Assembly (NCBI GenBank): GCA_033763315.1
Contig: JANRKS010000002.1
Location: forward strand, 192,001-256,000
Origin: Deltaproteobacteria bacterium
GTDB lineage: Bacteria > Myxococcota_A > Polyangia > Fen-1088
Direction of reading: 5' to 3'
Length of the DNA stretch: 64,000 nucleotides
Shown: positions 15,216 through 56,393 of the stretch, piece by piece
Position numbering within the stretch: position 1 is the stretch's first letter
Layout: every line of letters starts with the position of its first letter
Program-made: the position numbers and the translations under genes
Notes under the pieces: model-generated
The model's database searches: none
The model's input: the letters and a program-made list of their open reading frames with translations, nothing else
Told to the model about the DNA's origin: nothing

Positions 15216-15362
15216 CGACCTCTTAGTTCGCCTCGCCGGCAAAACGTTACAAGCGGCGCTCACGCGACGCTGGACACGCATTACGCGTAACGAAACGTGG
15301 TGTGGATAGACCAAGGCGGCAGGCGGGGACAAGAGCAGATGGCCCGCAGTGGAGGACACGGA

Positions 15363-16067
15363 ATGGCATTACCTCGACCCAGCACCCCCTTCCTGTCCTT
15401 GCGCTTCGATGCCCCGCCTTGGCCGCGGGTGTATCTGGGGTGGCTCGCGTTGCTGGCGTTGTCGCTCGGCTCTTGTGGGAGCGCTGTGGACGCACCGATT
15501 CAGCAGACCACGGATGCCGGCGGGGTGGGGGACGCGCCGCCGCTCGCGGCGGGCGCCTGTGAGACGGGACCTGCGCCGGTCGATTGGTCGTACCCTGCGG
15601 GGCCCTACAGTCAAGATGGACGCATCGGGGAGATCTTCGAAGACTTCACGCTGGAAGACTGTGACGGTCGGTCCGTGCGTTTCGGCGACATCCTCGCGGG
15701 CGCCCAGCTGGTCCTCTTCAATGTCGGCGCCGGGTGGTGTCAACCGTGCATCGAGGAGACAGAGGAGATCGAGGCCAAGGTCAACCAGCCACTTTGCCCC
15801 GCGGGGTTGAGGGTCGTGCAAGTCCTGTTTCAGGACGAGGAGTCCCTGCCTGCCACGAAGTTCTTCTGTCGCCAGTGGCGAGAAAAGTTTGGCCTCACCT
15901 TTCCCGTGCTCGTCGACCCGCTGTTCAAGATGGAGCGCTATTTCGAAGCGGCCCAGACGCCCCTCAACCTTGGGATTGACCGCCTAGGGGTGATTCGGCT
16001 GCGAACGGTCGGGTTCCCGCCCAAAGACCTGCCTGAACAACTCGGCGCGCTCTTGACGCGGCCATGA
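15363..16067 (+). CDS. TlpA/redoxin-like thioredoxin-fold lipoprotein
   Basis: Lipobox LGSC; AGWCQPC active site; FGLTFPVLVD; cis-Pro loop QTP. Confidence 0.82.
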   Translation: MALPRPSTPFLSLRFDAPPWPRVYLGWLALLALSLGSCGSAVDAPIQQTTDAGGVGDAPPLAAGACETGPAPVDWSYPAGPYSQDGRIGEIFEDFTLEDCDGRSVRFGDILAGAQLVLFNVGAGWCQPCIEETEEIEAKVNQPLCPAGLRVVQVLFQDEESLPATKFFCRQWREKFGLTFPVLVDPLFKMERYFEAAQTPLNLGIDRLGVIRLRTVGFPPKDLPEQLGALLTRP

Positions 16068-18007
16068 GCCCCATCACGGTTTACGTCTTCTTCGCGACCT
16101 GGTGCGTGCCGTGTCGCCAGGAGATGCCGCACGTGGCGGACCTGGCGCGCGAGTATCGGGACCGCGGGGTGCGGTTCGTGCTGGTGTCCGAGGACGCTCC
16201 TTCGACGGCGCCGCAGCTCCCCGCTTTTCTCGCCCGCTTCGGAGTCGAGGGCGAGCTGGTGTTGGACGAGGATTCGAGTTTGCTCGAGAAGTACAACCCG
16301 GCGGCGAATATCCCCTTCACGGCCATCGTGAACAGCCGGGGGCAGGTCCTCTACTCTCGGGCCGGCTACGAGCCGGGCGACGAGAACCGTCTTCGCGAAT
16401 TCTTGAACGAACAGCTCGCGGCCCGACCGCCTCCCGCAGCGGACTCGGTCCTCCCGCGCCCCCCGAACGAGGCGGCCAAGACTCTCCCAGCCAGATCCGC
16501 GCTGCGACTGGCAGAACCAGCGATGCCACCGGCGCCGGGGGCAGTGGCCTCGATCTACAGCACGACCATGGGTGTGCGGCGAAACACGAGCTTTCGCGAC
16601 ACCGAATCGAGCCCCAGCGAGGCCAACGTGCTCACCGAGCGCATCGAAGGGGCCGTCACTGCGGGGCGGTTCGCCCTGGCGGCGCGGGTCGATGCGGCCG
16701 TGCTCGAAAGGACCCTGGCCGCAGACCGCGACGCGCGTCTCGAGAAACTTCGCGCGGCGATGTCGTGGTGGCGCCTTCGTCTGTCGGCGGGTGACGAGTA
16801 TGCGAAGTTCGGCAACGGTCTCGTGCTGTCGGTTCGGCGCATCGATCTCCTGGGCCAGGACACGACGGTGCGCGGCGGTCGACTCGAGTATGTCGGCGAC
16901 CGTCTGGACGCCACGGCGCTCGCCGGGGTATTCAATCCTCAGAACGTCGATACCATCGACTTCAAGCAGGTGGATGATGCCGGGGATCTGGTGGCCGCGG
17001 CCCAGCTTCGCGAGCGCGCCGGTGGCCTGCTCCTTGGTCAGACGTTGGTCGGGTCACGCATCACGGGCGGCAGCGTGACCGGGGCCGACGTGGACCTCAT
17101 GATGGTGGGGCTGTCGGCTGAGGGAAAGTCGGCGCAGACCTGGGGCATGGTCGACGCCGCGCTCGAGATCGTCGGCCTCACGCGCCGCGGTTTCGCGGCG
17201 GCCGGCGCGCGCGAGAATGGGCACGGTGCTTACGGGCGGATCTCGGTGGCCGGGCACACGACCGTGATGTTGCTCGAGGGTAAGTTGTATCGCCGCATGT
17301 CGTTCCCGGGGTCGCGCGCCAACCTCTTGTACCACGAACCTCCTACGCTGGAGCGAGACGATCAAGAGCTGTCGGGTAACGCAGATTCCGCGGGTTTCCG
17401 CCTGCGTCTCGATCACCGCGTTCACCCGCGCGCGACCATCTTCTGGAACGGCGTCGCGTATCGGACGACGCTCGACGGAACAGACCCCTTGCAGGGTGGC
17501 GTGGGCGGCGCCGCCCTCGACCGGGGACTGCTGTGGCACACCTACGTGGGCGCTGACACCTGGCATCCGTCCGGGTTCTCGGGCGCGCTGTCTGCTGGGG
17601 CGCGCCGTGAGAACGATGCTTCGGGCGCTCGTCGGCGGAGCAACTTTCAACTCAACGCCGATGCCGCCCAGAAGCTCGGTTCGTTCGCGCTGGTCGCCAA
17701 GTGGGATCATCGCTTCGACACGAAGGAGCTGGTGCTCGGGCCGAAGAGCTTCGTCCGCGGCACCGCTGTGCTGGGGTTGACCTGGCGCTCGTTCGTCACC
17801 CTGTCGGGCCTTTACGGCTATTCTACCGAGGCGGCGCGAAATCCCACCCACTATCCCGGCGCCGAGGTCCGCGTCATCTTCGCGCCGCACGTCGACTTGC
17901 GGTTGTTCGCCGGTCGTCTCGTCGGAGGGCGAGTGTGTGTAAGCGGCGCTTGCCGGGACGTGCTGCCCTTCGAGGGCGCGCGTCTCGACCTGCAGATGAG
18001 GTACTGA
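16064..18007 (+). CDS. TlpA-like thioredoxin domain fused to a DUF6029-like outer-membrane beta-barrel
   Basis: FFATWCVPC...NIPFT domain; Pro-rich linker; GDEYAKFGNGLVL motif; C-terminal GGRVCVSGACR...FEGARL. Confidence 0.65.
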   Translation: MSPITVYVFFATWCVPCRQEMPHVADLAREYRDRGVRFVLVSEDAPSTAPQLPAFLARFGVEGELVLDEDSSLLEKYNPAANIPFTAIVNSRGQVLYSRAGYEPGDENRLREFLNEQLAARPPPAADSVLPRPPNEAAKTLPARSALRLAEPAMPPAPGAVASIYSTTMGVRRNTSFRDTESSPSEANVLTERIEGAVTAGRFALAARVDAAVLERTLAADRDARLEKLRAAMSWWRLRLSAGDEYAKFGNGLVLSVRRIDLLGQDTTVRGGRLEYVGDRLDATALAGVFNPQNVDTIDFKQVDDAGDLVAAAQLRERAGGLLLGQTLVGSRITGGSVTGADVDLMMVGLSAEGKSAQTWGMVDAALEIVGLTRRGFAAAGARENGHGAYGRISVAGHTTVMLLEGKLYRRMSFPGSRANLLYHEPPTLERDDQELSGNADSAGFRLRLDHRVHPRATIFWNGVAYRTTLDGTDPLQGGVGGAALDRGLLWHTYVGADTWHPSGFSGALSAGARRENDASGARRRSNFQLNADAAQKLGSFALVAKWDHRFDTKELVLGPKSFVRGTAVLGLTWRSFVTLSGLYGYSTEAARNPTHYPGAEVRVIFAPHVDLRLFAGRLVGGRVCVSGACRDVLPFEGARLDLQMRY

Positions 18008-18058
18008 CATCGCCCTCTAGGCGTAACGATGTCGGCTCTTCCGCGACTACAGAGGACA

Positions 18059-18415
18059 ATGAGACGACGAGTTTTCATGATGGGGGCCCTGGTGCCACTC
18101 GCCGGGTCCGGCTGTGACTACGAGGAGGACGAAGACGAGGCGCCACCGTCCGATGACCCGGGTGCCGCCCGGTGTGCCGATTCGCCTCCCCGGGCTTCGA
18201 TTGGCACCAACCACGGTCACCGTTTGCAGATTCCGCGCGAGGATGTGGAGACCGCCCAGCCCAAGAGCTACGACATCCGCGGCTCGAGCGGGCACCCACA
18301 CACCGTGAACGTATCCGCCGCGGATTTCTCGGCTCTCTCCGGCGGGGGATCGATCTCGCTCACGTCCACCAACGACGCCGGGCACACGCACACGGTGACG
18401 TTGTCATGCGCCTGA
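18059..18415 (+). CDS. Small His-rich (metal-binding) lipoprotein
   Basis: RBS AGAGGA; MRRR...GSGC; NHGH, GHPH and GHTH motifs. Confidence 0.65.
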   Translation: MRRRVFMMGALVPLAGSGCDYEEDEDEAPPSDDPGAARCADSPPRASIGTNHGHRLQIPREDVETAQPKSYDIRGSSGHPHTVNVSAADFSALSGGGSISLTSTNDAGHTHTVTLSCA

Positions 18416-18466
18416 TGCACGGCCCGCATCCCGACGTCGCGAGGCTGACGCGCGGGGGGCTCTGAG

Positions 18467-18952
18467 ATGAATCTTCCCGACGACTTCAAGACTTTCTACG
18501 AGAGCTTCCCGACTCACCAGGCCTGCCGGCAGATCGAGGCCGATCAGGTCGTCGCCTTGGTCCAGTCCGGCAAGCGGGTCGTCTTCGTCGACGCTCGATC
18601 GCGAGACGAGCAAGCCGTGAGCGTCGTGCCAGGGGCCGTATGTGTGTCGCTCGAAAAGGACGCTTTCGAGGTGACCCAGGAAGACTGCGCACGCGCCCTG
18701 GCGCACGAAGCGATCAGAGAGGACCTGGAGGTGCTCGGCGCCGAGCACGTCGTCGTGTGTTATTGTACCGCCGGACTGCGAGGCGCCCTGTGCGCGATGG
18801 CTCTGGAAAACGTGAGCTCGGCGCAGGTTTTCAACCTCGCAGGGGGCATCATCGCGTGGCGAAATCAAGGGCTCCCCCTCGAGCGGGCGGGGCGCCCGGT
18901 GCGCGACGTGCATCCCTGCGTACCTAGTCTGGCGAAGTACCTGTCCGCCTGA
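18467..18952 (+). CDS. Rhodanese-like sulfurtransferase
   Basis: FVDARSRDE; CYCTAGLRG; NLAGGIIAW. Confidence 0.85.
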   Translation: MNLPDDFKTFYESFPTHQACRQIEADQVVALVQSGKRVVFVDARSRDEQAVSVVPGAVCVSLEKDAFEVTQEDCARALAHEAIREDLEVLGAEHVVVCYCTAGLRGALCAMALENVSSAQVFNLAGGIIAWRNQGLPLERAGRPVRDVHPCVPSLAKYLSA

Positions 18953-18973: not shown

Positions 18974-20986
18974 ATGCGTAACGAAACGGGCACTAGCGGG
19001 ACGTCCAAGAACGGTATGCTCTCCGCGAACCACCTCCGGGTGACCTCGACCGCCTTCATTTGCGGGCTGGTGCTCGCTTGTTCGGAGCGGGCGCCTGCCG
19101 ACCCGGGTAGGGCCGCGGGAACCGCCCCGCCCGTGCAGACCGGCGGTTCCGGTGGAGGAGGTGTCGACGACCCTCATGCGGGTAACGGCGGTTCGCCCGT
19201 CGGCCCAGTGCCCCCTCCCGCGGCGTCGGTTGCGGCGCTCTGCGACGACCAGTCCACCTGCCTTGCATGCGTCGGCGGCCATGACTGTGCCGTTGGGGTT
19301 TCGCACATCGAGGGAACCTGCTGCGGGCAGGGGGATCCCTTGGTGCAGATTGGCCGCGGCATGGCCGCTGAAGCGGTGGACATCACCGTCAGGGATGGCG
19401 TCGCGGTTCTTTGCGGTGGCTTCGGCGCAAACGTCTCGGACGTGAGCAAGCCGTCCGTGCCTCGCTTCATCGGGGTCGCGGGCGAACGGTGCCAGCACGG
19501 TGCCTTCGGCCCCCGCACCGAGAGGGGACAGATTCTCTACCTGACTCACCACGGTGACTCCTGGGTGAGCACCCCCTCGCTTTCGACCTGGCTGGTCACG
19601 GCAAACGCGATCGAAGTCCTCGACACCATCGAAGACCCGAACCGGCTCTGGGAAGGGCCCGCTTGGCAGGCGGGCTTCTTGTATGTCGCGGCCCACCAAG
19701 GTGGCCTGTTGACGTACCGCACGTCTGGCGACGGGCTTCCCAGGTTGGTGCATACGCTGGGAGGTTTCAAGAACGCATGGAAAGTGGAGGTCGCAGGTCC
19801 GGTCGCCTACGTGGTGGACAACGACGACGGCGTATACGTGATCGATCTTCGCAACCCCGAGGCGCCAGCGGTAAGCCAGTTGGTCGAGACCACGGGCAAG
19901 CCGCGTGATCTGGCGATCGGGGACGGGCGCGTTTACGTGGCGTTGGGGGGAAGCGGCGTCGATGTGTTCGACATCGCCGCCGATGGGCTCGATTTGGGGA
20001 AGGTCAACAACATCGACACGCTCGGTTCGGCCCAGTCGGTCTCTGTCGCCGAAGGCGTGCTGGCCGTTGCGGCTTGGACGCATGTTGCGACCTATGACGC
20101 GCGCACGCTCATGTTGCTCGCCACCGAGACCACCCGTGGTTTTCCCGAGTTCGAACAGAACCTCGGCGTGTCATCGGTGGGCAAGCACGTCTTTGTCGCT
20201 GAGTGGGAGTTCCTGTTCACCCTCGAGCACCGGCCGGGCCTGGTTGCTCCCGACATGTGGGTGGATGCCCAGCAATATCAGTTCCCACGAGACGAGGCCC
20301 GCGCCAGGGCCATCATCGTCAGGAATGTCGGGCGGCTTCCCGTCGAGATCGACGCGATCTCGGCGGGAGACGCCGCCTTCGCCCTCGACAAGACCAAGCT
20401 TTCGATCCCGCCGCGAGAGGCCGCCGCGGTCGAGCTCACCTACAGCCCCACTGCTGGAAAAGAACAGTCGCTTCTCGAGATTTCGAGCAACGATCCCGAC
20501 CCTGAGCAAGCGAGCTGGCAAGGGGGCCTGCTGGTATCGTCGGATGCTGGGCTCGATGTGGGAGATCGGCTCGACGACGCTTTCGCGTTCCTCGACCCGA
20601 ACGGACAGAACCAAGTGGCGGGCCTTCAGGGCAAGGTGATAGTTCTTTCGTACTTTGCGTTGTTCTGACCGATCTGCGGTCTGGAGTTGCCAGACGTGGA
20701 ATCTCAGATATGGCGAAAGTACCGCGACCGCGGGGTCTTGGTGTTCGGCATCCACAGCGGAGAGGACCCGAAACTGTTGGCTGATTTCATCCAGCAGACC
20801 GGCGTTACATTTCCCGTGACCGAGGACGTGGGCGACACGCTGTTTCGGCTCCGCTTCCCTCGCGGCGTGGGGTATCCGTATCCGCGAGACGTGGTGATTG
20901 GAAAGGATGGCACGATTCGACTCATCGCCAACGCCTTCGACGTTGCCGAGATGGATGCGCTGCTGCAGAGATTGATCAACGAATGA
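18974..20986 (+). CDS. Predicted selenoprotein: lipoprotein with LVIVD-like beta-propeller, Ig-like domain and C-terminal TlpA/redoxin domain with a UxxC site (Sec at 20666-20668)
   Basis: ORFs 18974..20668 and 20687..20986 are in frame across one TGA, giving LQGKVIVLSYFALF-U-PICGLELPDVE...GVLVFGIH...FPV...YPYP; hairpin downstream; sel genes nearby. Confidence 0.85.
20679..20695 (+). promoter_or_regulatory. Putative bacterial SECIS element
   Basis: GTCTGG-AGTTG-CCAGAC stem-loop; loop begins 16 nt after the UGA and has G at its second position. Confidence 0.7.
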
Positions 20987-23604: not shown

Positions 23605-24777
23605 TCACGGGCAGACTGCAGCCGGGGCCGACGACGCTGGTTCGCATCGCGCGGTGATGATAGTCCCAGCGCCTCCGCGGAGCGCGGTGGTCGCGGCCCG
23701 AAGCGTTCCGTCGATCTGGATTCGTGCGCCCTCCGCGATCATCAACGTTCCCGCCAGGTGAAGATCGCCCGCTACGAAGGCAGGGACATCGATGAGCAGC
23801 TGGGCGCCTGACTCAACGATGAGATCCTTGGCGACGAAAGCTGGACCGCCGGTCAGGGTGACCCGCGCTGGCGCGCTGACCCTCACATGGTTGAGGAACG
23901 CCGCTTCATCCGAAGGGGGAGCGAGGCAGGCCGCGTCCTCGCACGAGAGCACCACTCGTTGAGGCTCCCGGCCATCGAGAACGAGACTGTGCCCCTCGGA
24001 CGGCCTGTAGGCGCCCCGCTCGACCGAAAAATCACCGCCGACCGTGAGCGTGCCGTTCGTCAGGACGCCGCGGACGGCGCCCCCCGCGAGGCTGACCGAG
24101 CCGCGGACGTTCACGACGCCTCCCGCGTCCTTCATCAGGAGGCGCGCGGTGCCGTTCGAGCGCAGGCCGCCCGATACGAACATCCGGTGCGCCCCCACCT
24201 CGAGAAGGTTGCGGCCTTCGATGGCCACGTCGCCATCGACGCCCACGTCACCGTCCAGCCGGACCACGCCCTGGACGGTGAGCCCGGGGACCATCCCCCT
24301 GATCTGCGTGCGAAGACCGTCCACCAAGACCATGCCCGGTCCCAGCACGACGGCATCGAGATACTCGAAGATGTGCAGCGTGTGGCCATCCGACGAGATC
24401 GGGTGAGAGGCCGGTGCGCACAGGCTCGCCACGCTCGTGAACGCGACCAGCCTTGGAGCTCCGGGGGCCGCCACGCTGATCGCCACCGACTCGTCTGATC
24501 GTGGGGGGTGCGGCGGATACCAGGCGGTCCCGTCGTTCCAGGGTGAAGACGCGCCAATCCACCTGCGTTCCACGGGTCGCGGACCGCCACACGGGGCCAA
24601 CCCATTGGGGGCGTCCGCTTCGTGAGCGTCGGCGGATGCGAAAGAGCGCGCGTCCCCATCCGCCGCGGTCATGATTTTTGGATCGGCCATGCACGCGAAC
24701 GGAGCCAGCAGCAACACGATCGCAAGGCGAGTGCTGATCTTCGGCGGAGGATCAGGCAACATGCGCGCGCTCGCCAT
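23605..24777 (-). CDS. Hypothetical exported beta-strand-rich protein
   Basis: Signal peptide/lipobox-like PFAC; W..G..W motif; Gly/Val-rich beta repeats. Confidence 0.5.
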   Translation of the reverse strand: MASARMLPDPPPKISTRLAIVLLLAPFACMADPKIMTAADGDARSFASADAHEADAPNGLAPCGGPRPVERRWIGASSPWNDGTAWYPPHPPRSDESVAISVAAPGAPRLVAFTSVASLCAPASHPISSDGHTLHIFEYLDAVVLGPGMVLVDGLRTQIRGMVPGLTVQGVVRLDGDVGVDGDVAIEGRNLLEVGAHRMFVSGGLRSNGTARLLMKDAGGVVNVRGSVSLAGGAVRGVLTNGTLTVGGDFSVERGAYRPSEGHSLVLDGREPQRVVLSCEDAACLAPPSDEAAFLNHVRVSAPARVTLTGGPAFVAKDLIVESGAQLLIDVPAFVAGDLHLAGTLMIAEGARIQIDGTLRAATTALRGGAGTIITARCEPASSAPAAVCP

Positions 24778-27076
24778 CTAGGCTCAAACGGATGGACGGA
24801 CCCGCGTCGTCCTTCACCACGTCGCCGATCACGGTGGCCTCGGAATACCCGGCCGCCCGACACGCGGACACGAACGCGTGGGCGCGATCGGAGCCGACCC
24901 CCACGAGGAGGCCCCCTGAGGTCTGCGGGTCGTGAATGAGCTCGCGCAGCGGCTTTGCCCACGTGGGTAGAGGAGCACCCCCAGGGACGACGGCGAGGGG
25001 GACTGTGCCCCCACGGTTTTGTTCGTGGTAGGTGCTGGCGATGCCCTGTGACAGCAGAGCGAGCGCACCTGGCAAGGCCGGCACCCTCGCGAGGTGCAGC
25101 GTCGCTGCGAGCCGCGCGTCGCGCAGCATCTCGCCGAGGTGCCCGACGAGGCCGAAGCCGGTGACGTCAGTCGCAGCGTGAACGCCTTCACTTCGTGCGA
25201 GCTGTCCCGCCGCGAGATTGGATTGTCTCGCGAAGTGGGTTGCGGCCCGGTACCAGCTGCCTCGCGCGCGGCCCAGCATGTGGGCCCGAAAGATCACGCC
25301 GGTGCCAAGCGGCTTGGTCAAGATCAGCGCGTCTCCCGCGCGCATCCCCCGCCGGGGAAGCGGCGCCTGGCCGGGTTCGAGGTAACCGGAGATCGTGAGG
25401 CCGACGTGAAGCGACTTCTCGTCCACGAGGCCGATGCTGGTGTGGCCTCCGATGAGCTGCACGTGCATGTCGGTCAGCGCCTGCTTCATCCCTGCCATCA
25501 CCTGCTCGAGCAGGGACCTCTGCTCATGTCCGGGGCGATCGGGGATGGTCAACATGGCCAGTGCGTGATGCGGTAGCGCGCCCTTCGCGGCCAGGTCAGA
25601 GGCAGCGTGCACGGCCGCGACGAATCCGACCAGCCAGGGATCATCCGTGAATGGCCGGAAGCCGTCGGTGCTGGTGAGCAGCAAGCGTCCGTCCGCCTGG
25701 CGCACCGCCGCGACGTCCTCACGGTCGGGCATGCCGAGCACGACGGACCCCTCGCGTTCCGCCGCCGGCGGGAGCGGCGCCGCGCCCACGTCTCCATGGA
25801 TCGTCTCGAGGTTGGCCAAGCCGACCTTCGCCGCGCATCCTCCGCAAGAGGCCGCGGGCATTGTCTCGGACACCTCGGTGAGGTTGTTCATGGGACTACC
25901 CCACTCATCGATGAGCTGGAAGCGCGACATGAACCGACGGTCGATTCGATCCTTGAGCCACGAGACCGCCCTGCCGTGAACCGCGAACCCCCATTTCGCG
26001 CCGATGGCAGTGCCGTCCGCCACGTTGAGGAGGCGCAAGAAGTCACGTTGAGGACGATACCTCTCGAGCGGGCGGCCCCCCACGATCCGGCGCAGGTTGG
26101 CGAGCAAGATGGGCCCGGCCCTCACCGCATAGACACCGGCGCGCGGACGATCGGGCTGCGACGTGATGGTGGCGCAATCGCCGACCGCGAAGAGGTTCGG
26201 CTGTCCCTCGACCAGCAGCCGATCGTCCGTCAGGACGAAGCCGCCCTCATCGTGCGGCAGATCTGAATCACGTATCACGGCGGGTGGTGCCGCCCCGGTC
26301 GCCCAGATGGTCAGGTCGGACGGCACGACCTCACCGGATTCGGTGGTCAGAGATGAAGTGTCGACCGAGCGCACTCGGGTGCTGCCCCGGAACGCGATGT
26401 GATGCCGTGTGAGCGCATCGAAGACCAGCGTGGTGGAACGCCTGCCGGCCCCTGGTAGCGGCGTCGGGGAGTCCCCGAGCAGTGTGAGGACGTGGGGACG
26501 CCCTCCCCCAGGAGCGGAGCGGAGTCGCCTGGCGATCGCGAACGCAAGCTCGAGCCCCGCCGCGCCCGCGCCCACGATGACGACGCGCAGGGGACGACGC
26601 GAGTTGGTTGGCTCGAGCTTCGCCTCGAGCCTCGCGATCAGCTCTGCGATGGGACGTGTGGCGACCGCATGCGCGGGAACCCCGGTTCCGTCCTTGCCTT
26701 TGGTGACCGAACCCACGTTCAGGCTGGCGTAGTCGTATCGGAGCGCGGTTCGCCCTGCGAGCTCGACGCGGCTGCCGCGTGCATCGATCCGGGTCGCCTT
26801 CGCGATCACGAGCCGCGCCCCGGCCCTTGCGGCGAGCGGGGCGATGTCGATCGTGGCTTGTTCGCGCGTGTATTGACCCGCGACGACCCCTGGGACCATC
26901 CCCGAGTAGAGCACCTCCGGTTGGTCCACCACCACGGTCAGCCGTGCCCCGGGGACCGGTTTCATCATCCACCCTCGCAGGATTTGCACGTGCGCGTGGC
27001 CCCCTCCGACCAAGATGATGTCGGCTCGATGCTCGCGAACGACTTTCGTCGCGTCAGTGCTCACGCTGGCCACCAC
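24752..27076 (-). CDS. selD: Selenide, water dikinase fused to an N-terminal FAD-dependent oxidoreductase
   Basis: GGGHAH, YSGMVPG, GAGAAG and FAVGDCA (flavoprotein); then SCGGCAAKVG, GGHT, LTKPLGTG, TDVTGFGLVGH and DPQTSGGLL (SelD). Confidence 0.93.
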   Translation of the reverse strand: MVASVSTDATKVVREHRADIILVGGGHAHVQILRGWMMKPVPGARLTVVVDQPEVLYSGMVPGVVAGQYTREQATIDIAPLAARAGARLVIAKATRIDARGSRVELAGRTALRYDYASLNVGSVTKGKDGTGVPAHAVATRPIAELIARLEAKLEPTNSRRPLRVVIVGAGAAGLELAFAIARRLRSAPGGGRPHVLTLLGDSPTPLPGAGRRSTTLVFDALTRHHIAFRGSTRVRSVDTSSLTTESGEVVPSDLTIWATGAAPPAVIRDSDLPHDEGGFVLTDDRLLVEGQPNLFAVGDCATITSQPDRPRAGVYAVRAGPILLANLRRIVGGRPLERYRPQRDFLRLLNVADGTAIGAKWGFAVHGRAVSWLKDRIDRRFMSRFQLIDEWGSPMNNLTEVSETMPAASCGGCAAKVGLANLETIHGDVGAAPLPPAAEREGSVVLGMPDREDVAAVRQADGRLLLTSTDGFRPFTDDPWLVGFVAAVHAASDLAAKGALPHHALAMLTIPDRPGHEQRSLLEQVMAGMKQALTDMHVQLIGGHTSIGLVDEKSLHVGLTISGYLEPGQAPLPRRGMRAGDALILTKPLGTGVIFRAHMLGRARGSWYRAATHFARQSNLAAGQLARSEGVHAATDVTGFGLVGHLGEMLRDARLAATLHLARVPALPGALALLSQGIASTYHEQNRGGTVPLAVVPGGAPLPTWAKPLRELIHDPQTSGGLLVGVGSDRAHAFVSACRAAGYSEATVIGDVVKDDAGPSIRLSLDGERAHVA

Positions 27077-27149: not shown

Positions 27150-27246
27150 GGAGGCGCCACTGGCACTGGTGGCTGGCTCGGTCTTCAAAACCGATGGGAC
27201 GCACCCTGGCGGCGCGTTCGGCGGGTTCGATTCCCGTGCGCTTCCG
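27150..27246 (+). tRNA. selC: tRNA-Sec (anticodon UCA)
   Basis: 8-bp acceptor stem GGAGGCGC/GCGCTTCC; anticodon stem TCGGT/ACCGA with loop CTTCAAA (TCA at 27185-27187); long variable arm; GGTTCGATTCC T-arm; G discriminator; CCA not encoded. Confidence 0.93.
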
Positions 27247-27277
27247 CAACTCACCTCTTCCAGATCGGGACTCGACA

Positions 27278-29353
27278 TCAGTTTGTGCCAGGTTTGGTCG
27301 GGAAACGCGACGCCCCTCCATGACCCTGCGCAGGGGTGCTGGCGCGTTTTCCCCAGGGCCGTCGTAGGTCGCCCACGCGAATCGTCACGCGTCGGGCGTC
27401 GAAGTGCTCCGCAAGCGGAATGCGGTACTTGCGGCTGACCCCCGAAACTGTCTTCCATTGCTGCGGCGTGATCGCGCCGTGTTCGTCGAGGAACGCGCGT
27501 AGCTTACCCTCAAGTAGTGAGATGACGGCGGTATCGAAATGAAGCCCCATGGCCACGCGGGTGAGTTGCCCCTGCCGGACGAGCGTCCCGATGGCCTGCG
27601 CCAGCTCGGAACCTGGCTCCGCCAGTAGGACCTCGAGCTCTCGCTGCAGCGGAGGCTGAAGGCCCGCGCGGGCATACTCGGCGTGGACACGTTCGAGCAA
27701 CTGCCGCTGGCGCTCCTCGGCCGCTGGTTTGAAATCCGTCGTTCGCACAAGGCCCTGGTGCTCGACGATCTGGCCGGCGCCTTGGAGCCGTTTGAGCGAC
27801 ACGTCGAAGACCGGCTCGGAAAGCGGCCGCCCAGCCGCGCCCAAGCTGGCGCGGAGGCTCTCCCGTCCCATGCCGGATTCGAGCGGCGACGACTGTTGCC
27901 GGCGCCGGACGATCGTCAGCAGGCGCGTGGCCAGCCGGTCGAGCGTGGCGTTGCTGATCATGCGTTCCGGGGGCGTGCCGATGAGCGCCACCTGCCCGCC
28001 GTTCACCAGTGGTGCAGCTCGCTCTAGCAGACGAGCGGGGGAGCAGGCGAGACGGGCCGCCAACTCGTCGACCGAACGGCCTGTGAGCGGCGCGTCCTCG
28101 AGGAGCATCAACGCCTTCTGCCCGACCTCCGCCTGACGGAAACGTTGAATCCAGACCGCACGCGACACCGCGGCGCCGCGGGGCTTTCGTGCGTCGACGT
28201 TCACGACCTCCCCGCCGCCCGTGGTCGTGCCATGGTCGGCTAACTTGCGATAGCCACGCAGAACGAAGCGATCGCCAGGCAGGAGCGGGAGCAGCGAATC
28301 GAGCTCGACCACCGCGGCCCCCGTCTGTCCAGGGGCCAGTTCGTCCTGCCCGAGCAGGCGGACCGTCGCATTCACTTGCGCCGTGAGCGCATGGAACAGG
28401 CCGCGCGTGAGCCGTGGCATGGCCACGCGATTGGCTGGCAGGTGGGTGACCAGGACCTCCACGAACCGCGACGGCGGGACCTGGCCAGGTCGCACGAGGG
28501 TGTCGCCTCGCTCGAGCAACTCGGGCGCGAGCGCGGGCAAGTTGACGGCGGTCCGGTCGCCCGCCACGGCCAGGGTCGCGGACTGTCCTCTGACGTGGAT
28601 GCCGCGGACACGGCCTGTCTTGCCGGCGAACGTGGTCTCTAGTTCGTCCCCGACCCGGAGATGTCCCGACACCAGCGTGCCGGTTGCGATGGTTCCGAAC
28701 CCCTTGAAGGAGAACACGCGGTCCACGGGCAATCGCAAGGGGGCGTCCTCGGGCCGCGGTCTCACGTGCGTGACGAGCTCGCAGAGCGCCCGGCGAAGCG
28801 CATCGATGCCCCGGCCCGTGTGCGCCGAGCAAGCGATCATCGGCCAGGTGCGGGCCGGATGGCCCGATAGCTCGGCGCGGATTCGATAGCGAGTTTTCTC
28901 GAGTTCCTCCGTCTCGACAGCATCGGACTTGGTGAGGACGACGATGCCCCTGTCGATGCCCAGCAGGTCACAGATGGACAAGTGTTCGCGCGTCTGCGGC
29001 TTCATGCCCTCGTTCGCCGCCACCGCGAGCAGAATGGCGTCGACGCCTTGCGCCCCGGCGACCATGGTTCGAATGAAGCGTTCGTGGCCGGGGACATCGA
29101 TGAACGAGACTGGGACGTCGCCCTCGACTCGTACGCCATCGGGGGCCAAGCGGTTTCGGGTGGTGTGCACGAAGCCGAGATCAATCGTGATGCCGCGCCT
29201 CACCTCCTCGGGCAGCCGGTCGGTCTCGACGCCGGTGAGCGCGCGGATGAGGGCTGTCTTACCGTGATCGATGTGGCCGGCCGTGCCAATCACGAATCCG
29301 CGCGGACCGCGTGTGCCGGAGACGATGTTTTCCGTCAGGGGCTCTGGCACCAT
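27278..29353 (-). CDS. selB: Selenocysteine-specific elongation factor
   Basis: GTAGHIDHGKT, RGITIDLGF and DVPGHERF; C-terminal winged helix SRKYRIPLAEHFD. Confidence 0.96.
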   Translation of the reverse strand: MVPEPLTENIVSGTRGPRGFVIGTAGHIDHGKTALIRALTGVETDRLPEEVRRGITIDLGFVHTTRNRLAPDGVRVEGDVPVSFIDVPGHERFIRTMVAGAQGVDAILLAVAANEGMKPQTREHLSICDLLGIDRGIVVLTKSDAVETEELEKTRYRIRAELSGHPARTWPMIACSAHTGRGIDALRRALCELVTHVRPRPEDAPLRLPVDRVFSFKGFGTIATGTLVSGHLRVGDELETTFAGKTGRVRGIHVRGQSATLAVAGDRTAVNLPALAPELLERGDTLVRPGQVPPSRFVEVLVTHLPANRVAMPRLTRGLFHALTAQVNATVRLLGQDELAPGQTGAAVVELDSLLPLLPGDRFVLRGYRKLADHGTTTGGGEVVNVDARKPRGAAVSRAVWIQRFRQAEVGQKALMLLEDAPLTGRSVDELAARLACSPARLLERAAPLVNGGQVALIGTPPERMISNATLDRLATRLLTIVRRRQQSSPLESGMGRESLRASLGAAGRPLSEPVFDVSLKRLQGAGQIVEHQGLVRTTDFKPAAEERQRQLLERVHAEYARAGLQPPLQRELEVLLAEPGSELAQAIGTLVRQGQLTRVAMGLHFDTAVISLLEGKLRAFLDEHGAITPQQWKTVSGVSRKYRIPLAEHFDARRVTIRVGDLRRPWGKRASTPAQGHGGASRFPTKPGTN

Positions 29354-29379
29354 GGCTCTCTTTCGTTTATCACGGTCGG

Positions 29380-30774
29380 GTGGCGCACGAATCCGACAGC
29401 AGACTTCGCTGCTTGCCCTCGGTGTCGCGGGTGCTGTCCGCGCCCGAGGTACAGCGATATGTGGTCTCGCTCGGGCACCCTGCCGTTACACGCGTGGTGA
29501 GAGAAACGATCGGGCGTTATCGAGACAGCGCTCTGGCTGCTCCCCTGGGTGATGGGCGTCGCGTGCTGTCCGCCGTTGTCGAAGAAGTGGTTCGAGCCTT
29601 GGCGGGCCAAGGAAAAGTCAGCCTCTCCACGGTGGTGAATGGAACAGGCGTTCTGCTTCACACAAACTTGGGGCGGGCGCCTCTTTCCAGGGCGGCGCTG
29701 TCGCAGTTGGTCGAGATCGCGTCGGGGTACTGCACGCTCGAGCTCGACCGGGCCACGCGCAAACGGGGCAGTCGTCACCAACACGTCGAGCCGCTGCTGG
29801 CGGAGCTGTGCGGCGCCGAGGGTTCCCTCGCGGTCAACAACAACGCGGCGGCGGTTTGGCTGGTGCTGCGAGCGCTTGCGGCGGGGCGCAAGGTCGTCGT
29901 CTCGCGGGGTGAATTGGTGGAGATCGGCGGCGGGTTCAGGATTCCCGACATTCTGCGCGACGCCGGGGTCGAGCTCGTTGAAGTCGGGACGACAAACCGA
30001 ACCCGCATCGAGGACTATGCGGCCGCATGTTCGGCGGACGCGCTGATGATTCTACGGGTCCACCGATCGAACTTCGAAATGGTCGGCTTTACGGAGATGC
30101 CGAGCCTCGCGGCGCTGGCGAACTTGGCCCGTGAGCGCGGCCTGCAACTCGTCGTCGATCAGGGCTCGGGAGCGCTGGTCGACTTGCCGGCGGCGGGCAT
30201 CCAGGGGGAGCAGACCGTGAAGGGGGCGATCGCGGCGAAGGCCGACCTGGTGTGTTTCTCGGGGGACAAGCTGCTTGGGGGCCCGCAGGCGGGCCTCATC
30301 GTGGGCAAAGCGGACTTGATCGCGCGGATCGCGCAGCACCCTATGATGCGCGCGCTGCGCCCCGGGAAGCTCGAGCTCGCGGCCCTCGAGGCGACCCTGC
30401 GTGCGCACCGCTCGGGGGCAGCCGGCGACGAGATTCCGTTCCACATGATGTTGCACGAACCGCTGTCCGAGGTGCGGGCCCGGGCCGACCGGCTCGCGGC
30501 GGGCATCGTGGGTCTCGGCGCGGGATGGTCGGCTGACGTACGTCCGACCCAGAACCGCATCGGTGGCGGCGCGGCGCCGACCGCCTTGATCGAAGGTTAC
30601 GGTGTGTTCCTTTCACGCCTGGAATGGTCTGCCGATGACCTCGCCCAGGCGTTTGCTGGCCTCCATCCCTCCGTGATTGGCCGTATCGAGGATGACCGGC
30701 TCGTTGTCGAGGCCCGGACGCTGCTGGTCGGTGATGTCGAGGTGACCTTGCAGGCCATGCGCGCCATCGCGTAG
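29380..30774 (+). CDS. selA: L-seryl-tRNA(Sec) selenium transferase
   Basis: NGTGVLLHTNLGRAP, VNNNAAA, SRGELVEIGGGFRIPD, EVGTTNRT and FSGDKLLGGPQAG; probable GTG start at 29380. Confidence 0.96.
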   Translation: MAHESDSRLRCLPSVSRVLSAPEVQRYVVSLGHPAVTRVVRETIGRYRDSALAAPLGDGRRVLSAVVEEVVRALAGQGKVSLSTVVNGTGVLLHTNLGRAPLSRAALSQLVEIASGYCTLELDRATRKRGSRHQHVEPLLAELCGAEGSLAVNNNAAAVWLVLRALAAGRKVVVSRGELVEIGGGFRIPDILRDAGVELVEVGTTNRTRIEDYAAACSADALMILRVHRSNFEMVGFTEMPSLAALANLARERGLQLVVDQGSGALVDLPAAGIQGEQTVKGAIAAKADLVCFSGDKLLGGPQAGLIVGKADLIARIAQHPMMRALRPGKLELAALEATLRAHRSGAAGDEIPFHMMLHEPLSEVRARADRLAAGIVGLGAGWSADVRPTQNRIGGGAAPTALIEGYGVFLSRLEWSADDLAQAFAGLHPSVIGRIEDDRLVVEARTLLVGDVEVTLQAMRAIA

Positions 30775-30794: not shown

Positions 30795-31313
30795 TCAAGG
30801 CAGGTGGCGCAGGTGGGGGGCGAGCAGGTGCTGCCACGAGGCCGAAAACCCATGCACCTTGGCGGGCGCGCCGCGCGGCGCTTGGAGGGGGCGGCCTTCG
30901 TTTGCCCATTTGAAGATGCCTCCCGACAGGTTGCGCGCGTGTCTGAAGCCAAGGGCCGCCAGATGACGCGCGTACTCCGCGGACCGGTAGCCGACGGAGC
31001 AATACACGACCACGGGATCGGTGCGCGGATCGAGACCTGCTAGAGCATCCGCTGCCCCGATCCAGCGCGCGCCCGGGAGGTGACTCACCTCGAACTCCTC
31101 GCCGGCTCGCGCATCAATGATACGCGGCCTGGTGGCCGCCTCGATCGCGGCCGCGAGACTGCCGGTCGTGATTTCATGAACGTCGGGATGTCGGGTTCTC
31201 ACGTCCTGCATCACCGTGTGGAGCGAGGGCCTGGGGCCCGAGCACGTCACCGAGGCCAGGAGGGCCGCGAGCGCAAACAGGCAGGTCTGGCCCGGTAGGT
31301 ACCCGGGCCTCAT
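30795..31313 (-). CDS. Exported rhodanese-like protein
   Basis: IDARAGEEFEVSHLPGA; VYCSVGYRS; NLSGGIFKW. Confidence 0.85.
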   Translation of the reverse strand: MRPGYLPGQTCLFALAALLASVTCSGPRPSLHTVMQDVRTRHPDVHEITTGSLAAAIEAATRPRIIDARAGEEFEVSHLPGARWIGAADALAGLDPRTDPVVVYCSVGYRSAEYARHLAALGFRHARNLSGGIFKWANEGRPLQAPRGAPAKVHGFSASWQHLLAPHLRHLP

Positions 31314-39051: not shown

Positions 39052-39810
39052 TCAGGCTCTGTTCGGTCGGTACCCCTTTCCATCGAGGACGAAAGTCTCG
39101 GAACGTTCTGTCAGCCGCTCGGCGATCACCTGGGCGTTCAGCGAGTCAGGGAAAACCTTGGTCCAGTCCTTGAATGGTCGGTTCGTGGTGATCATGGTTG
39201 AGCGACGGTAGTCGTAGCGCTCGGCGATGACCTGGAATGCGAGTTTGGCTTGCGCCGGGTCCATCGCGAGCACGGCGAAGTCGTCGATTGCCAAGAGGTC
39301 AGCGCGAACGTAGCGGCGAAGGGCTCGTTCGAGCGAGCCGTGAATTTCAGCGCCGTGCAGGTCCGTGAGCATCCGAGGGGCTGACGTGAACACCACCTTC
39401 TTTTGTGCCTGGCAAGCGCGGTAGGCGAGCGCCCGCGCGAGGAACGTTTTGCCCGTCCCCGGAACGCCGATGAACAGTGGATTCGCTCCCCTTGTTAGAA
39501 ACGCAAGATCGTGGAGTGCCAGATAGCGAGCGCGAAGCTTCTTGCGAGCGGGATCGAAGTCGAAGTCGAAGGCATCCACCGTGTTGATCTCCGGGAATCG
39601 TGCATCCTTGATGCGTCGGTCGACGGAGCTCCGGATGCGGCTGTGCTTCTCGGCATCGCAAAGCCGACCGACGACTGCGCCGACGGTAAGGTTCTCGGTG
39701 GCGGCGCGGTGTAGGACATCTTTCAAGGCAGATGCCATCCCTGGCAGGCGAAGCCAGCGAAGCTTCTCGGCAAGAACCTCGACACTGCTTTCGTCATCCT
39801 TGTTCTTCAC
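39052..39810 (-). CDS. istB: IS21 helper ATPase IstB
   Basis: GVPGTGKT, LLAIDDF and ITTNRPF motifs. Confidence 0.92.
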   Translation of the reverse strand: MKNKDDESSVEVLAEKLRWLRLPGMASALKDVLHRAATENLTVGAVVGRLCDAEKHSRIRSSVDRRIKDARFPEINTVDAFDFDFDPARKKLRARYLALHDLAFLTRGANPLFIGVPGTGKTFLARALAYRACQAQKKVVFTSAPRMLTDLHGAEIHGSLERALRRYVRADLLAIDDFAVLAMDPAQAKLAFQVIAERYDYRRSTMITTNRPFKDWTKVFPDSLNAQVIAERLTERSETFVLDGKGYRPNRA

Positions 39811-41353
39811 GAACGGTCTCCTTCATGGGTGACGCCGGTGGCTCACCCGGGTCGCGCGTCATCGACGGAGCGACGAGCTGGTCATACAGGCTTAGGTCAG
39901 GCTCCCGGAGTGAGATGCTGTCGAAGGCAGGGTTTCCCAAGCTCAACGGCTCCGGCGCCGGGGTCAGACCGCGCTTATGGCGCAAGACGTACTCGACATA
40001 TTCAGCGCCGACGTGCCCGCTCCTCAAGACCTCGTCCACGGCAGAGGCCGTGGCAGGTTCGCCAAAGAGTTCCTTCAGAAAGGTGAGGCGAACGATCTCA
40101 CGTCTGATCGATCGGCTACCGGCCGCCAGTATCTTGAAATACTGCACACCCGGGGCGCCGAGCCCGACGAGAGGCTGCGGTAGTTCGCCGGCCTGCGCGC
40201 GCGGTTTCTTCGCCAGCACGGCCACCCGGTGGGTCGGGTCCTCGATGTCTTTGTTCGTGTCCCAGCAACGCGGATGGGTCGCCACCATCTTCGGGCCGAG
40301 GAATACCGAGACTGCATGGTCGTTGGCGCGCACGAGAACGGTTTGGTCCACAAGGTGAGGGGGCACCGAGTAGAGGTTGCGATCGAACCGGACCCGGAAC
40401 GTCTTGCTGACCATCGCCGTTGCGATGTCGTCGGTGTTGAAGGGGACTGCGGGGACCGCGCGCAGCGCCTTGCGCTCCTCGTGCTCGAACACCAGCGCAG
40501 GCACCTTCCCGGTCACCTCGTGCACTCGGTTGTTCGCGAAAGTGTCTCGCCAGGCTGCGGCCTTGACGTTTAGGTCCATCAAGTCCGATGGCCGACACCC
40601 GGGCCAGAATCGCTCGCGCACAAAACCCACGGGGCGCTCGACGATGCCCTTCTCGTTTCCTCGGCCGACATTGCAGGCGATGGCGCCGAACTGGCGGATG
40701 CGCGCGTACTCCAGAAAACGGCCGTTGAACGCGGTAACGGTGGGCGTGTGTGAACGCACCACGGTCTTCATGTTGTCGAAGATGTCGACCTTGGTGCTTC
40801 CGCCAAAGAAGCGCAGGGCCCGATCCATGCAGCGCAGGAATGCACCCATTGCCTGGCTGAGGGTGAACTCCAGATAGATGTACCGCGAGTAGCACAGCAC
40901 CATCACGAAGGCGCTCACGCGGCGGGGACAGCCCGGCAATGCAAAGCCGAAGTCTGCCCAATCCACCTGCGCCGCCTGGGCCACCGGGAACTCGAGCGTC
41001 AAGAACGGTTCGCGCTCAGCGTGTGGTCGCAATCTGCGCAGATGCTCTCGAAGGATGGTGATTCCACCTCGATATCCCAGCGGGCGCAGCCGCTCTAGGA
41101 TCGCTGGGGCACGCAACTCTGACGCCTCACCCAGCATTTGTCGGATCGCACCTTCGTACGGGCCCAACAGCTTGGCCCTAGCCACGCGTGGCTTGTCTTG
41201 CTTGGCGGCGCGATCTCCATCAAGCACCTTGCGCACGGTTTTACGTGCCATCTTGAGCCGACGGCTGATCGCGCGGATCCCCAGGCCATCGGCATACGCG
41301 AGTCGCAGAACCTCGGCGCGGCGATGAGATGTCACATCGTCGTCAACGAGCAT
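39794..41353 (-). CDS. istA: IS21 transposase IstA
   Basis: N-terminal HTH; AQVDW, FDNMKT, KGIVER and NLYSVP motifs. Confidence 0.92.
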   Translation of the reverse strand: MLVDDDVTSHRRAEVLRLAYADGLGIRAISRRLKMARKTVRKVLDGDRAAKQDKPRVARAKLLGPYEGAIRQMLGEASELRAPAILERLRPLGYRGGITILREHLRRLRPHAEREPFLTLEFPVAQAAQVDWADFGFALPGCPRRVSAFVMVLCYSRYIYLEFTLSQAMGAFLRCMDRALRFFGGSTKVDIFDNMKTVVRSHTPTVTAFNGRFLEYARIRQFGAIACNVGRGNEKGIVERPVGFVRERFWPGCRPSDLMDLNVKAAAWRDTFANNRVHEVTGKVPALVFEHEERKALRAVPAVPFNTDDIATAMVSKTFRVRFDRNLYSVPPHLVDQTVLVRANDHAVSVFLGPKMVATHPRCWDTNKDIEDPTHRVAVLAKKPRAQAGELPQPLVGLGAPGVQYFKILAAGSRSIRREIVRLTFLKELFGEPATASAVDEVLRSGHVGAEYVEYVLRHKRGLTPAPEPLSLGNPAFDSISLREPDLSLYDQLVAPSMTRDPGEPPASPMKETVREEQG

Positions 41354-41874
41354 GGCCGACCTGAATCACTCCGGGAAAGCCCCGAACCTTCAGATGGATC
41401 TCCGCGTGGTGCGCCGGCACCATGCACATGGCGTCGTCCCAGCGTTGCGCCCAGCAGATATCCTCGTCGGTCCCTGCCACATACAACACAACGCGAACCG
41501 GGCAGCTCTGCCATGACGTCAAGATCGCCAGCAGCTGCTGAACGTCCTGCGCTGATGGTGCGGTCGCCACCGAGCTGCTCAGCTTGATCTCCGTGAACGC
41601 CCCCTCCTGATGGGGGCGCAGCTCCAGGGTCATGGGCGCGGGGTGCATGGGCCGATGCTGGTTGTGCATCGCCCGTCAAATTCCTGGAACCATGATCCCC
41701 CACGCGTTCTGACCGACGGCGAGCCCTCGCGGCCTGCTGTTGATCCCGATGGTCTTGCCGTCCCTCATCGCTCGCCCGGTGCTTACGCCGCGCTCTCCGG
41801 GCTGTGCGCCGACGTCCTTCACGTCGACAACCATCTCCGCAGTACAAGTGGCCACGGTCGCACCGCCGGTGCAC
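41332..41874 (-). CDS. IS-borne Cys-rich basic accessory protein (start uncertain)
   Basis: The frame extends upstream to give CGHC...RRCDRGHLYCGDGC, followed by an Arg-rich helix. Confidence 0.45.
   Translation of the reverse strand: MHRRCDRGHLYCGDGCRREGRRRTARRARRKHRASDEGRQDHRDQQQAARARRRSERVGDHGSRNLTGDAQPASAHAPRAHDPGAAPPSGGGVHGDQAEQLGGDRTISAGRSAAAGDLDVMAELPGSRCVVCGRDRRGYLLGATLGRRHVHGAGAPRGDPSEGSGLSRSDSGRPCSLTTM
41343..41669 (-). CDS. IS-borne hypothetical protein upstream of istA
   Basis: 108-aa ORF overlapping the istA start. Confidence 0.4.
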   Translation of the reverse strand: MHNQHRPMHPAPMTLELRPHQEGAFTEIKLSSSVATAPSAQDVQQLLAILTSWQSCPVRVVLYVAGTDEDICWAQRWDDAMCMVPAHHAEIHLKVRGFPGVIQVGHAR

Positions 41875-42153
41875 CCAGAACTCGTTTCCGCAGTGGCCGC
41901 AACGCCGTGCTCGGATCTCCAGTCGACCTCAACGAGGTCGAAGAACTGGACGCCGCCACCAATCCGTCGCATCATCCTGGCACTACGTCAGGAGTGCGGC
42001 GCACCCGCGCTGCCCCCGAAAGGCTCGGAGCGCCAACTCCGGGCCTTTCGCCTTTTCGGCCTACGTCGCTTTCAACCTCGATGATCACCCCAAATCCGGC
42101 CAAAGATGATCACTTCAAAACCGGCCAAAGGACGGGGTCGGGACTGGCCATAT

Positions 42154-42918
42154 CTAGCCCCTGAGTTCGGCCTCCGGCAAGTTCTCTTGGCCGACCCGTG
42201 TCCGCCAGCTGCGAGGACCGCATTTGAGGACGTGGCCGTGGTGGAGGAGGCGATCGAGCATCGCGGCGACGGCGGCGGCGTCGCCGAGTACCTTGCCCCA
42301 GTCCTCCACCGGGCGGTTCGAGGTGAAGAGCGTGCTGGCGCGCTCGTACCGCCGCATGACGAGCTCGAGCAGGTCCTCAGCGGCAGTGGGCGGAAGCTTG
42401 CGCATCCCCAGATCGTCGATGATCAGCAACGGGACGGCGGCCAGCTCGGTGATGGTCTCCTTGCGGGTGCCGTCGAGTGTGGCGTCCGCGAGTTCTTCGA
42501 TCAGCGCGTGCGCCTCCCGGTATAGGACGCGGTGCCCCTGCTGAATCGCACAATGGCCGATCGCTTGCGCGAGGTGGCTCTTCCCCGTGCCTGGCGGTCC
42601 GAGCATGAGGACATCCTCATGCTTAGCGATGAAGTGGCCCGCCGCGAGCTCGTAGACGAGCCGGCGGTTCATCTTCTTGTTGAAGTCGAAATCGAAGGTG
42701 TCGAGCGTGCGGTCGGCGTCTCGGAAGTGCGCGTGCTTGGTTCGCCGTTCCAGCAACCGGTCGGCGCGGCGGCTTAGCTCGTCCGAGACCAGAATCGAGA
42801 TCAGGTCTATGGGGGCCATGCGCTCCGATTGCGCCTGCATCAGGCGGCTCTCCAACACGTTGGCCATGCCGCCCAGGCGCAGTTGCCTGAGCGCGCGATC
42901 GAGTTCGACGAGATTCAT
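42154..42918 (-). CDS. istB: IS21 helper ATPase IstB
   Basis: GPPGTGKSH, LLIIDDLG, TSNRP and LDRLLHH motifs. Confidence 0.93.
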   Translation of the reverse strand: MNLVELDRALRQLRLGGMANVLESRLMQAQSERMAPIDLISILVSDELSRRADRLLERRTKHAHFRDADRTLDTFDFDFNKKMNRRLVYELAAGHFIAKHEDVLMLGPPGTGKSHLAQAIGHCAIQQGHRVLYREAHALIEELADATLDGTRKETITELAAVPLLIIDDLGMRKLPPTAAEDLLELVMRRYERASTLFTSNRPVEDWGKVLGDAAAVAAMLDRLLHHGHVLKCGPRSWRTRVGQENLPEAELRG

Positions 42919-50127: not shown

Positions 50128-50135
50128 GGTTGCAC

Positions 50136-56311: not shown

Positions 56312-56320
56312 GTATTTCTG

Positions 56321-56393
<73 letters not shown>

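Follow-up and report, generated by a model that had tools for sequence, protein, structure and literature searches.

The window analyzed here, a 64,000-nucleotide stretch of contig JANRKS010000002.1 from a Deltaproteobacteria bacterium, carries on its forward strand two adjacent open reading frames (ORFs) that, judging from sequence, are almost certainly one gene in which a UGA codon is read as selenocysteine (Sec). The upstream ORF (564 amino acids, 18974 to 20668) terminates GKVIVLSYFALF at a TGA located at 20666 to 20668. Past this TGA, the same frame continues with the codons CCG ATC TGC (P-I-C) into a 99-amino-acid ORF (20687 to 20986), and the frame stop is reached at 20984 to 20986. With the TGA read as Sec, the gene (18974 to 20986) yields a product of 670 amino acids counted from the first ATG, in which U565 is followed by the residues P-I-C-G-L-E-L-P-D. 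The likely start is Met15 at 19016, which places a lipobox-like cysteine 22 residues in. A first-pass annotation, made from the letters alone, had proposed this same 670-residue frame with Sec565, and the codons that follow the TGA are as it described. Two Pfam domains span the TGA when the read-through protein is searched: AhpC-TSA (residues 546 to 650, E value of 7e-11, 42.5 bits against a cut-off of 26) and Redoxin (residues 541 to 649, 33.2 bits against a cut-off of 26.6). With a domain above the Pfam cut-off and a UxxC motif, the protein belongs with the UxxC redoxins (PF00578/PF08534).

Two further redoxin genes with cysteine at the active site lie upstream on the same strand. These are the paralogues that the first-pass annotation had described as carrying WCQPC and WCVPC, and both motifs are present as claimed. 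The first gene (15297 to 16067; WCQPC) encodes a Cys-type redoxin lipoprotein with a relative at 24 of the 120 other loci (median locus length, 6.6 kb). This is the only recurrent specific neighbor, and neighbors other than redoxins are not conserved across loci. In the second (16064 to 18007; WCVPC), the redoxin is joined to a DUF6029-like barrel that is predicted to lie in the outer membrane, and a barrel relative at 30% identity or more was found at 4 of the 120 loci. This redoxin-barrel protein begins at its first strand, without the signal peptide that is seen in its homologues at loci L028 and L067, and at loci L060, L064, and L046 the redoxin and the barrel are separate genes. A small His/Cys-rich protein and two rhodanese-like genes (18029 to 18952 and 30795 to 31313) flank the read-through gene and the Sec-decoding cluster. 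None of these were found at other loci, and it is possible that they serve as selenium or sulfur carriers. The final TGA of the read-through gene overlaps a downstream ATG at 20983 (ATGA), an overlap that the first-pass annotation took to fit translational coupling, and the corresponding downstream gene is a neighbor at none of the 120 other loci.

The complete Sec-decoding machinery (selA, selB, selC, and selD) is present in this genome and is located 4 to 10 kb downstream of the read-through gene. It comprises an oxidoreductase (TIGR03169)-SelD fusion of the Cys type (CAAK) at 24752 to 27076 on the reverse strand, which is the only SelD in the assembly; tRNA-Sec (selC) with the anticodon UCA at 27150 to 27247 on the forward strand; selB at 27278 to 29353 on the reverse strand (TIGR00475, 302 bits, cut-off of 242); and selA at 29311 to 30774 on the forward strand (TIGR00474, 502 bits, cut-off of 268). 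Because the fusion also scores 484 bits on TIGR04369 (“fusion_not_SelD,” cut-off of 700), we only infer its SelD activity.

A scan of genome contigs with the single protein gave no homologue; an alignment-based scan found them. Among 56 non-self database matches, 52 end exactly at the Sec position, which bears out the earlier expectation that standard annotation would split the gene, and the other four are one shorter fragment and three proteins with LVIVD repeats only. In the DNA of 73 loci, we located 68 active-site codons from 66 loci (this gene included), and every one of them is TGA. Beyond the TGA, 65 of these sites continue as a redoxin of 98 to 116 amino acids, and the other three drift out of frame after conserved first residues. 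In total, the active-site codon was seen directly at 108 TGA sites, and neither TAA nor TAG ever occurs there.

The first-pass annotation had also pointed to a SECIS-like hairpin, which is present at 20679 to 20695 on the forward strand (GUCUGG-AGUUG-CCAGAC). Its stem is formed by GTCTGG (20679 to 20684) and CCAGAC (20690 to 20695), and its loop, AGTTG (20685 to 20689), begins 16 nt past the UGA. Published constraints for bacterial SECIS elements are a loop of 3 to 9 nt, a stem of 4 to 16 bp, a G in the first two loop positions, a spacing of 16 to 37 nt, and an energy no higher than −7.5 (PMC13188914, Fig. 2 legend). The hairpin agrees with this consensus in its 5-nt AGUUG loop, 6 bp, 16-nt spacing, and −7.7 to −9.3 kcal/mol. 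The 23-nt hairpin stretch folds at −9.3 kcal/mol (z score of −2.72; 3 of 200 shuffled sequences are as good). However, folding energy alone is weak evidence because a 55-nt segment prefers a different minimum-energy structure (z score of −1.0), with the hairpin appearing only in the centroid.

When codons +4 to +9 of 60 distinct site sequences were compared with background, GGT was used in 53 of 56 cases (background, 0.10), CTG in 60 of 60 (0.49), TTG in 37 of 48 (0.07), and CCA in 37 of 52 (0.06). The 12 codons upstream of the UGA follow background usage, and thus the rare synonymous codons are confined to the hairpin. Across 85 distinct rows, the six stem pairs are formed in 91.8% of cases compared to 17 to 48% in slid controls, and the loop G at 20686 is invariant (85 of 85). 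Ten rows, all from one clade (L117, L118, L130 to L136, and L139; peptide PSEVSD), carry a hairpin that is one base out of register (GUCCGA-GGUC-UCGGAC) and that keeps the distance between the loop G and the UGA. Because this clade accounts for 10 of the 24 two-sided stem changes, and the remainder mostly affect the outer pair (G-C to A-U in eight cases and to C-G in two), true covariation mainly concerns one pair. The hairpin is absent at all eight TGC sites seen in DNA, six of which come from one genus, and in one genome a Sec paralogue has the hairpin whereas a Cys paralogue lacks it. Taken as sequence patterns, these observations indicate that the SECIS hairpin is under selection.

Homologues with Cys aligned to the TGA had been suggested as a check on the selenoprotein claim. 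An all-Sec family was suggested by the first homologue search and by the top 150 representatives, which lacked a full-length Cys form. This notion was discarded when a query from a distant subfamily recovered full-length Cys forms, which belong to that subfamily and are encoded by single genes. The family therefore includes Cys/Sec pairs, with TGC at eight sites together with the full-length Cys-type records. A FastTree phylogeny of 104 rows (89 Sec and 15 Cys, seven of the latter being database proteins whose codon was not seen) groups every Cys form into a single subclade that also contains Sec forms, such that six changes are needed, at least four of which are forced by strongly supported branches. 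With a midpoint root, the tree reads as repeated change from Sec to Cys. Such changes are reported to be rare (PMC1794560).

These data also bear on the possibility that the TGA is a real stop, whether because two separate genes are present, because the gene is a pseudogene, through an error of sequencing, or under a different genetic code. A TTG start codon does lie seven codons downstream, and nearly all database gene calls end at this point. Against this, TAA and TAG are never found at the 108 sites, a split would cut the CxxC motif, and the Cys homologues are single genes. A code in which TGA specifies Trp does not apply because TGA terminates other genes here, the read-through gene included. 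The first-pass annotation had named two circumstances that would count against its reading, namely that homologues are always two genes with neither Cys nor Sec at this position, or that the TGA is a sequencing error or a recent nonsense mutation. Neither holds: Cys forms are single genes, and the same TGA codon is retained among homologues that are only 27 to 57% identical. The conservation of TGA and the loss of the hairpin at TGC sites refute the real-stop reading, which we consider to have next to no chance of being correct. With the frame also kept beyond the TGA, the selenoprotein claim stands, and we hold Sec decoding of this UGA to be very close to certain.

In a same-phylum sample, the family is present in at least 58 of 401 genomes, or approximately one in seven and often in several copies, with at least 90 matches; these counts are lower bounds because three candidates were scored per genome. 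TGA is held by 87 of the 90 matches, and three have no stop, among them L121 and L122, whose active-site codon was not located by the script. Named loci are mostly from Myxococcota, including the cultured species Plesiocystis pacifica SIR-1 (L038), and some have other labels as deposited. At L004 (G039:C650), a divergent member adjoins a smaller UGA redoxin (SEW-U-PPC), giving tandem candidate selenoproteins, and tandem copies of the family also occur at L071 and L127.

The gene for SelA scores above its cut-off in all 33 genomes from which the GTDB loci come, each genome contributing a single locus. In the same-phylum sample, selA is found in 58 of 58 carrier genomes compared to 248 of 401 (62%) overall, although these are not 58 independent tests because the carriers are kin and selA is common in the phylum. 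The five Cys-form genomes tested all keep selA. At an independent locus, L064, selB, selA, tRNA-Sec, both redoxin neighbors, the family gene, and SelD occur together. In the 90.85% complete assembly of this genome, no other selenoprotein was found by three script scans, which can miss short or terminal cases, and six family searches. The script scans were added because a PF00578 family search of this genome did not return the read-through gene, which shows that such searches can miss TGA-split genes. There is no Sec formate dehydrogenase and no SelU, and the one SelD is of the Cys type. PMC1794560 states that Sec-decoding organisms without FdhA have Sec-SelD.

Both the read-through gene and the whole sel cluster reside on a 98-kb island at tRNA-Gly(CCC), which is delimited by a 43-bp repeat of the tRNA 3′ end (40 of 43 positions identical) and carries an integrase at the tRNA. 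The right end of the island lies at 54953 to 56393 (integrase at 54953 to 56311 on the forward strand; tRNA-Gly at 56320 to 56393 on the reverse strand), and the left att repeat is approximately 42 kb before the window (G000:C2:150186-150228). GC content is 0.64 to 0.68 within the island versus 0.58 to 0.63 outside, and two IS21-type elements are present (approximately 39052 to 43080). At 48805 to 50436, the island also encodes a JAB-domain plus ThiF (E1-like) fusion of the kind found in bacterial ubiquitin-like systems. The left half (G000:C2, approximately 161 to 181 kb; L150:14932-19872, L151:1863-3607, and L151:13137-16575) holds a redox/metalloid cassette with an EgtD-EgtB fusion, a Cys-form ArsS, TIGR04282/TIGR04283 glycosyltransferases, an ArsM-like methyltransferase, a MerA-like flavoprotein, and a pst transporter, part of which is common to the congener G001. 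ArsS was considered as a second selenoprotein and was ruled out by its Cys form.

Neither of the two congeners searched carries the read-through gene or selA. However, G001 has part of the island cargo at the same tRNA (66 to 78% DNA identity), which makes it less likely that this genome alone acquired the entire island recently. Because G001 shares cargo without the gene or selA, the read-through gene and its machinery were gained or lost together. The shared cargo includes the oxidoreductase of the SelD fusion, which stands alone in G001 and ends just where SelD would start.

The order of domains that had been proposed (a Cys-rich N terminus, an LVIVD-like propeller, an Ig-like domain, and a redoxin) is backed by Pfam, the ESM Atlas, and a structure model. 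By sequence pattern, a predicted lipoprotein signal peptide (19016 to 19081) ends in LVLA-C36; by regular-expression match only, this lipobox-like Cys after a hydrophobic stretch is shared with 125 of 185 database relatives. A Gly/Pro-rich linker and a small Cys-rich cap follow (19082 to 19333; sequence and model). It is at this linker and cap that relatives insert long Cys-rich repeats, with up to 111 Cys per protein. Six loci (L025, L026, L028, L029, L035, and L052) have such N-terminal repeats, with 46 to 111 Cys per protein and lengths up to approximately 1,340 amino acids, and the repeats correspond to PF00526 in database relatives. Next come an LVIVD-type β-propeller of 28 strands forming seven blades (19340 to 20230; Atlas, alignment, and model), an ASH/HYDIN-type Ig-like domain (20255 to 20539; Pfam, Atlas, and model), and a TlpA/ResA-type thioredoxin-fold domain with U565-P-I-C568 (20546 to 20983; Pfam, NCBIfam, PDB, alignment, and model). 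The Pfam matches to LVIVD (residues 267 to 305) and to the ASH/Cep192 Ig-like domain (residues 441 to 507) are below cut-off, but both are supported by the model and by the Atlas, which assigned the LVIVD and HYDIN/ASH Ig-like families. In the Atlas, LVIVD-plus-Ig proteins of approximately 465 amino acids from Fidelibacterota resemble the UGA-terminated form.

The model of residues 86 to 670, built with a 31-sequence alignment, has a pLDDT of 93.1 and a pTM of 0.92. Its layout is a Cys-rich cap, a propeller (123 to 419), an Ig-like sandwich (428 to 522), and a thioredoxin fold (approximately 525 to 669). Foldseek returned generic propellers only (best query TM-score of 0.43), and therefore no solved structure with this arrangement is among those returned.

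We consider it probable that one Sec-decoded gene here encodes a predicted lipoprotein whose seven-bladed propeller and Ig-like domain support a U-P-I-C domain of the TlpA/ResA type, likely functioning as an envelope disulfide reductase. SelB would, we are nearly sure, bind the hairpin 16 nt past the UGA and deliver Sec-tRNA made by the adjacent SelA and SelD, whose use here is presumed. The protein would in all likelihood be exported and lipid anchored at the predicted Cys36. Judging from the fold and motif, Sec565 would attack a disulfide or an oxidized Cys of a target and Cys568 would resolve the product, as in CxxC proteins of the TlpA/ResA type. Re-reduction may proceed from the cytoplasm via DsbD/CcdA-type carriers, possibly through the neighboring Cys redoxins; two DsbD_TM genes occur elsewhere in the genome, and no cytochrome c maturation genes lie beside the read-through gene. 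In the weakest step of this scheme, the propeller, which is rigidly docked in the model, might select the target, for which disulfide-rich surface proteins are the likeliest candidates.

The redox domain itself could be read differently. AhpC-TSA is its top Pfam match, it has weak matches to peroxiredoxins in the PDB, Sec is strongly preferred over Cys (87 of 90 matches), and the island carries other redox and metalloid genes, all of which would suit a selenoprotein with a peroxidatic Sec that scavenges peroxides or oxidants in the envelope rather than reducing protein disulfides. Yet the peroxiredoxin motif PxxxTxx[CU] is absent (the sequence is SYFALF-U-PIC), and F-U-P-I-C is of the thioredoxin type, not the PxxxTxxU type (PMC13188914). 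By sequence, the closest PDB entries are 2ls5, ResA (4nmu/3c71), and DipZ, and the best matches are ResA/TlpA-like. The domain has the thioredoxin fold, N-terminal extension, [CU]xxC motif, and Pro before the last strands that characterize TlpA/ResA proteins, with P635-x-P637 conserved and P637 present in 103 of 104 sequences. Moreover, a small substrate would need no large propeller. We thus judge a peroxidatic function to be unlikely.

Conserved residues of the propeller (C147, C173, E227, H241, N267, W368, and W411) raise another alternative, modeled on SOQ1, in which the Sec-thioredoxin passes electrons internally to C147 and C173 and this second Cys pair performs the actual chemistry, for example to repair oxidized Met or Cys. 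C147 is conserved in 86 of 95 sequences and C173 in 88 of 96, accompanied by the polar residues E227, H241, and N267. Furthermore, SOQ1 and NHLRC2 are reported to have a thioredoxin-like domain joined to a propeller, and SOQ1 ranked fifth in the fold search. However, SOQ1 has a different domain order and another type of propeller (whole-chain TM-score to SOQ1 of 0.28), no Cys is conserved in the present Ig-like domain, and C147 and C173 may simply form a structural disulfide. We view such a relay as improbable, somewhat more so than a peroxidatic function.

In bacteria, termination competes with Sec insertion. The main product could be an adhesin-like propeller-Ig protein to which the redoxin is added only upon Sec insertion, making the gene a selenium-dependent switch. 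The propeller-plus-Ig proteins of approximately 465 amino acids that form Atlas clusters in another phylum might fit this scenario. A stop at the UGA, though, leaves the first strands of the thioredoxin fold unpaired, and Cys forms yield the full-length protein constitutively, and we therefore regard a switch as very improbable.

A broader proposal can be made only tentatively, and we put its chances at somewhat less than even. The family may rank among the most common bacterial selenoproteins that are still uncatalogued, and it would descend from an envelope redox enzyme that contained Sec and used the propeller as a substrate platform. Sec would have given way to Cys on several occasions, counter to the usual direction of change, and the family alone would suffice to keep a whole Sec-decoding system, and to move it on an integrative island, in a genome with a Cys-type SelD and without Sec formate dehydrogenase. 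Because databases hold the family cut at the UGA, hundreds of “LVIVD hypothetical proteins” are misannotated. The Sec/Cys pairs, the matched presence and loss of SECIS elements, and the one-base re-registered SECIS with its invariant loop G also constitute a test set for SelB recognition.

The first-pass annotation had stated that the architecture was unrecognized. This is so for the 119 entries of the 2026 catalogue (PMC13188914, Table 1), none of which names a propeller or LVIVD fusion (the word “propeller” occurs zero times), and for NCBIfam, in which no model reaches its cut-off with the read-through protein (the best is ResA at 43.5 to 47.6 bits versus 170). Searches of the literature for selenoproteins with TlpA, LVIVD, Myxococcota, myxobacterial genera, or Plesiocystis found nothing on this family, and its terms had no match in PMC13326102 or PMC12013277. 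The statement does not extend to sequence records, given that Cys forms exist under the automatic names “redoxin domain-containing” or “choice-of-anchor D domain-containing.” WP_012831330.1 (Haliangium ochraceum) and WP_437799273.1 (Sorangium) have the same lipoprotein-propeller-Ig-redoxin arrangement over 94 to 99% of a related query, but they carry Cys at the site, relax the SECIS-encoded GLELPD to ANHLPD, and belong to the distant subfamily; no study of these records was found in the literature. P. pacifica and H. ochraceum are among the species that BSepDB covers according to its supplement, and single members may be recorded in that database under a general redoxin name. Likewise, the work of Haft and Tolstoy (2025), whose families are represented here through the catalogue table, may contain members of the family.

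Among known systems, the SOQ1 proteins of plants and NHLRC2 of animals also combine a thioredoxin-like domain, a β-propeller, and a further β domain, but in the reverse order, with an NHL rather than an LVIVD propeller, and without Sec. The likeness is an analogy, and the present proteins are not members of that family. In structure, the redox domain is most closely related to the TlpA/ResA/CcmG reductases, which are exported and membrane anchored, as is predicted for the present protein; this family, however, has Sec in place of Cys and 440 extra residues of propeller and Ig-like domain. Also close are the catalogued UxxC selenoproteins, namely a Prx-like thiol:disulfide oxidoreductase (PF00578), the Redoxin family (PF08534), and a thiol-disulfide isomerase-like family (cd02966) (PMC13188914, Table 1), which share the fold class, a UxxC motif with Sec as the attacking residue, and a 3′-adjacent SECIS. 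These are listed by their redoxin domain alone, and to them is added a multidomain, probably exported selenoprotein family. Although UxxC redoxin selenoproteins are known, the propeller-Ig-redoxin fusion is new to the 119-family catalogue and to NCBIfam.
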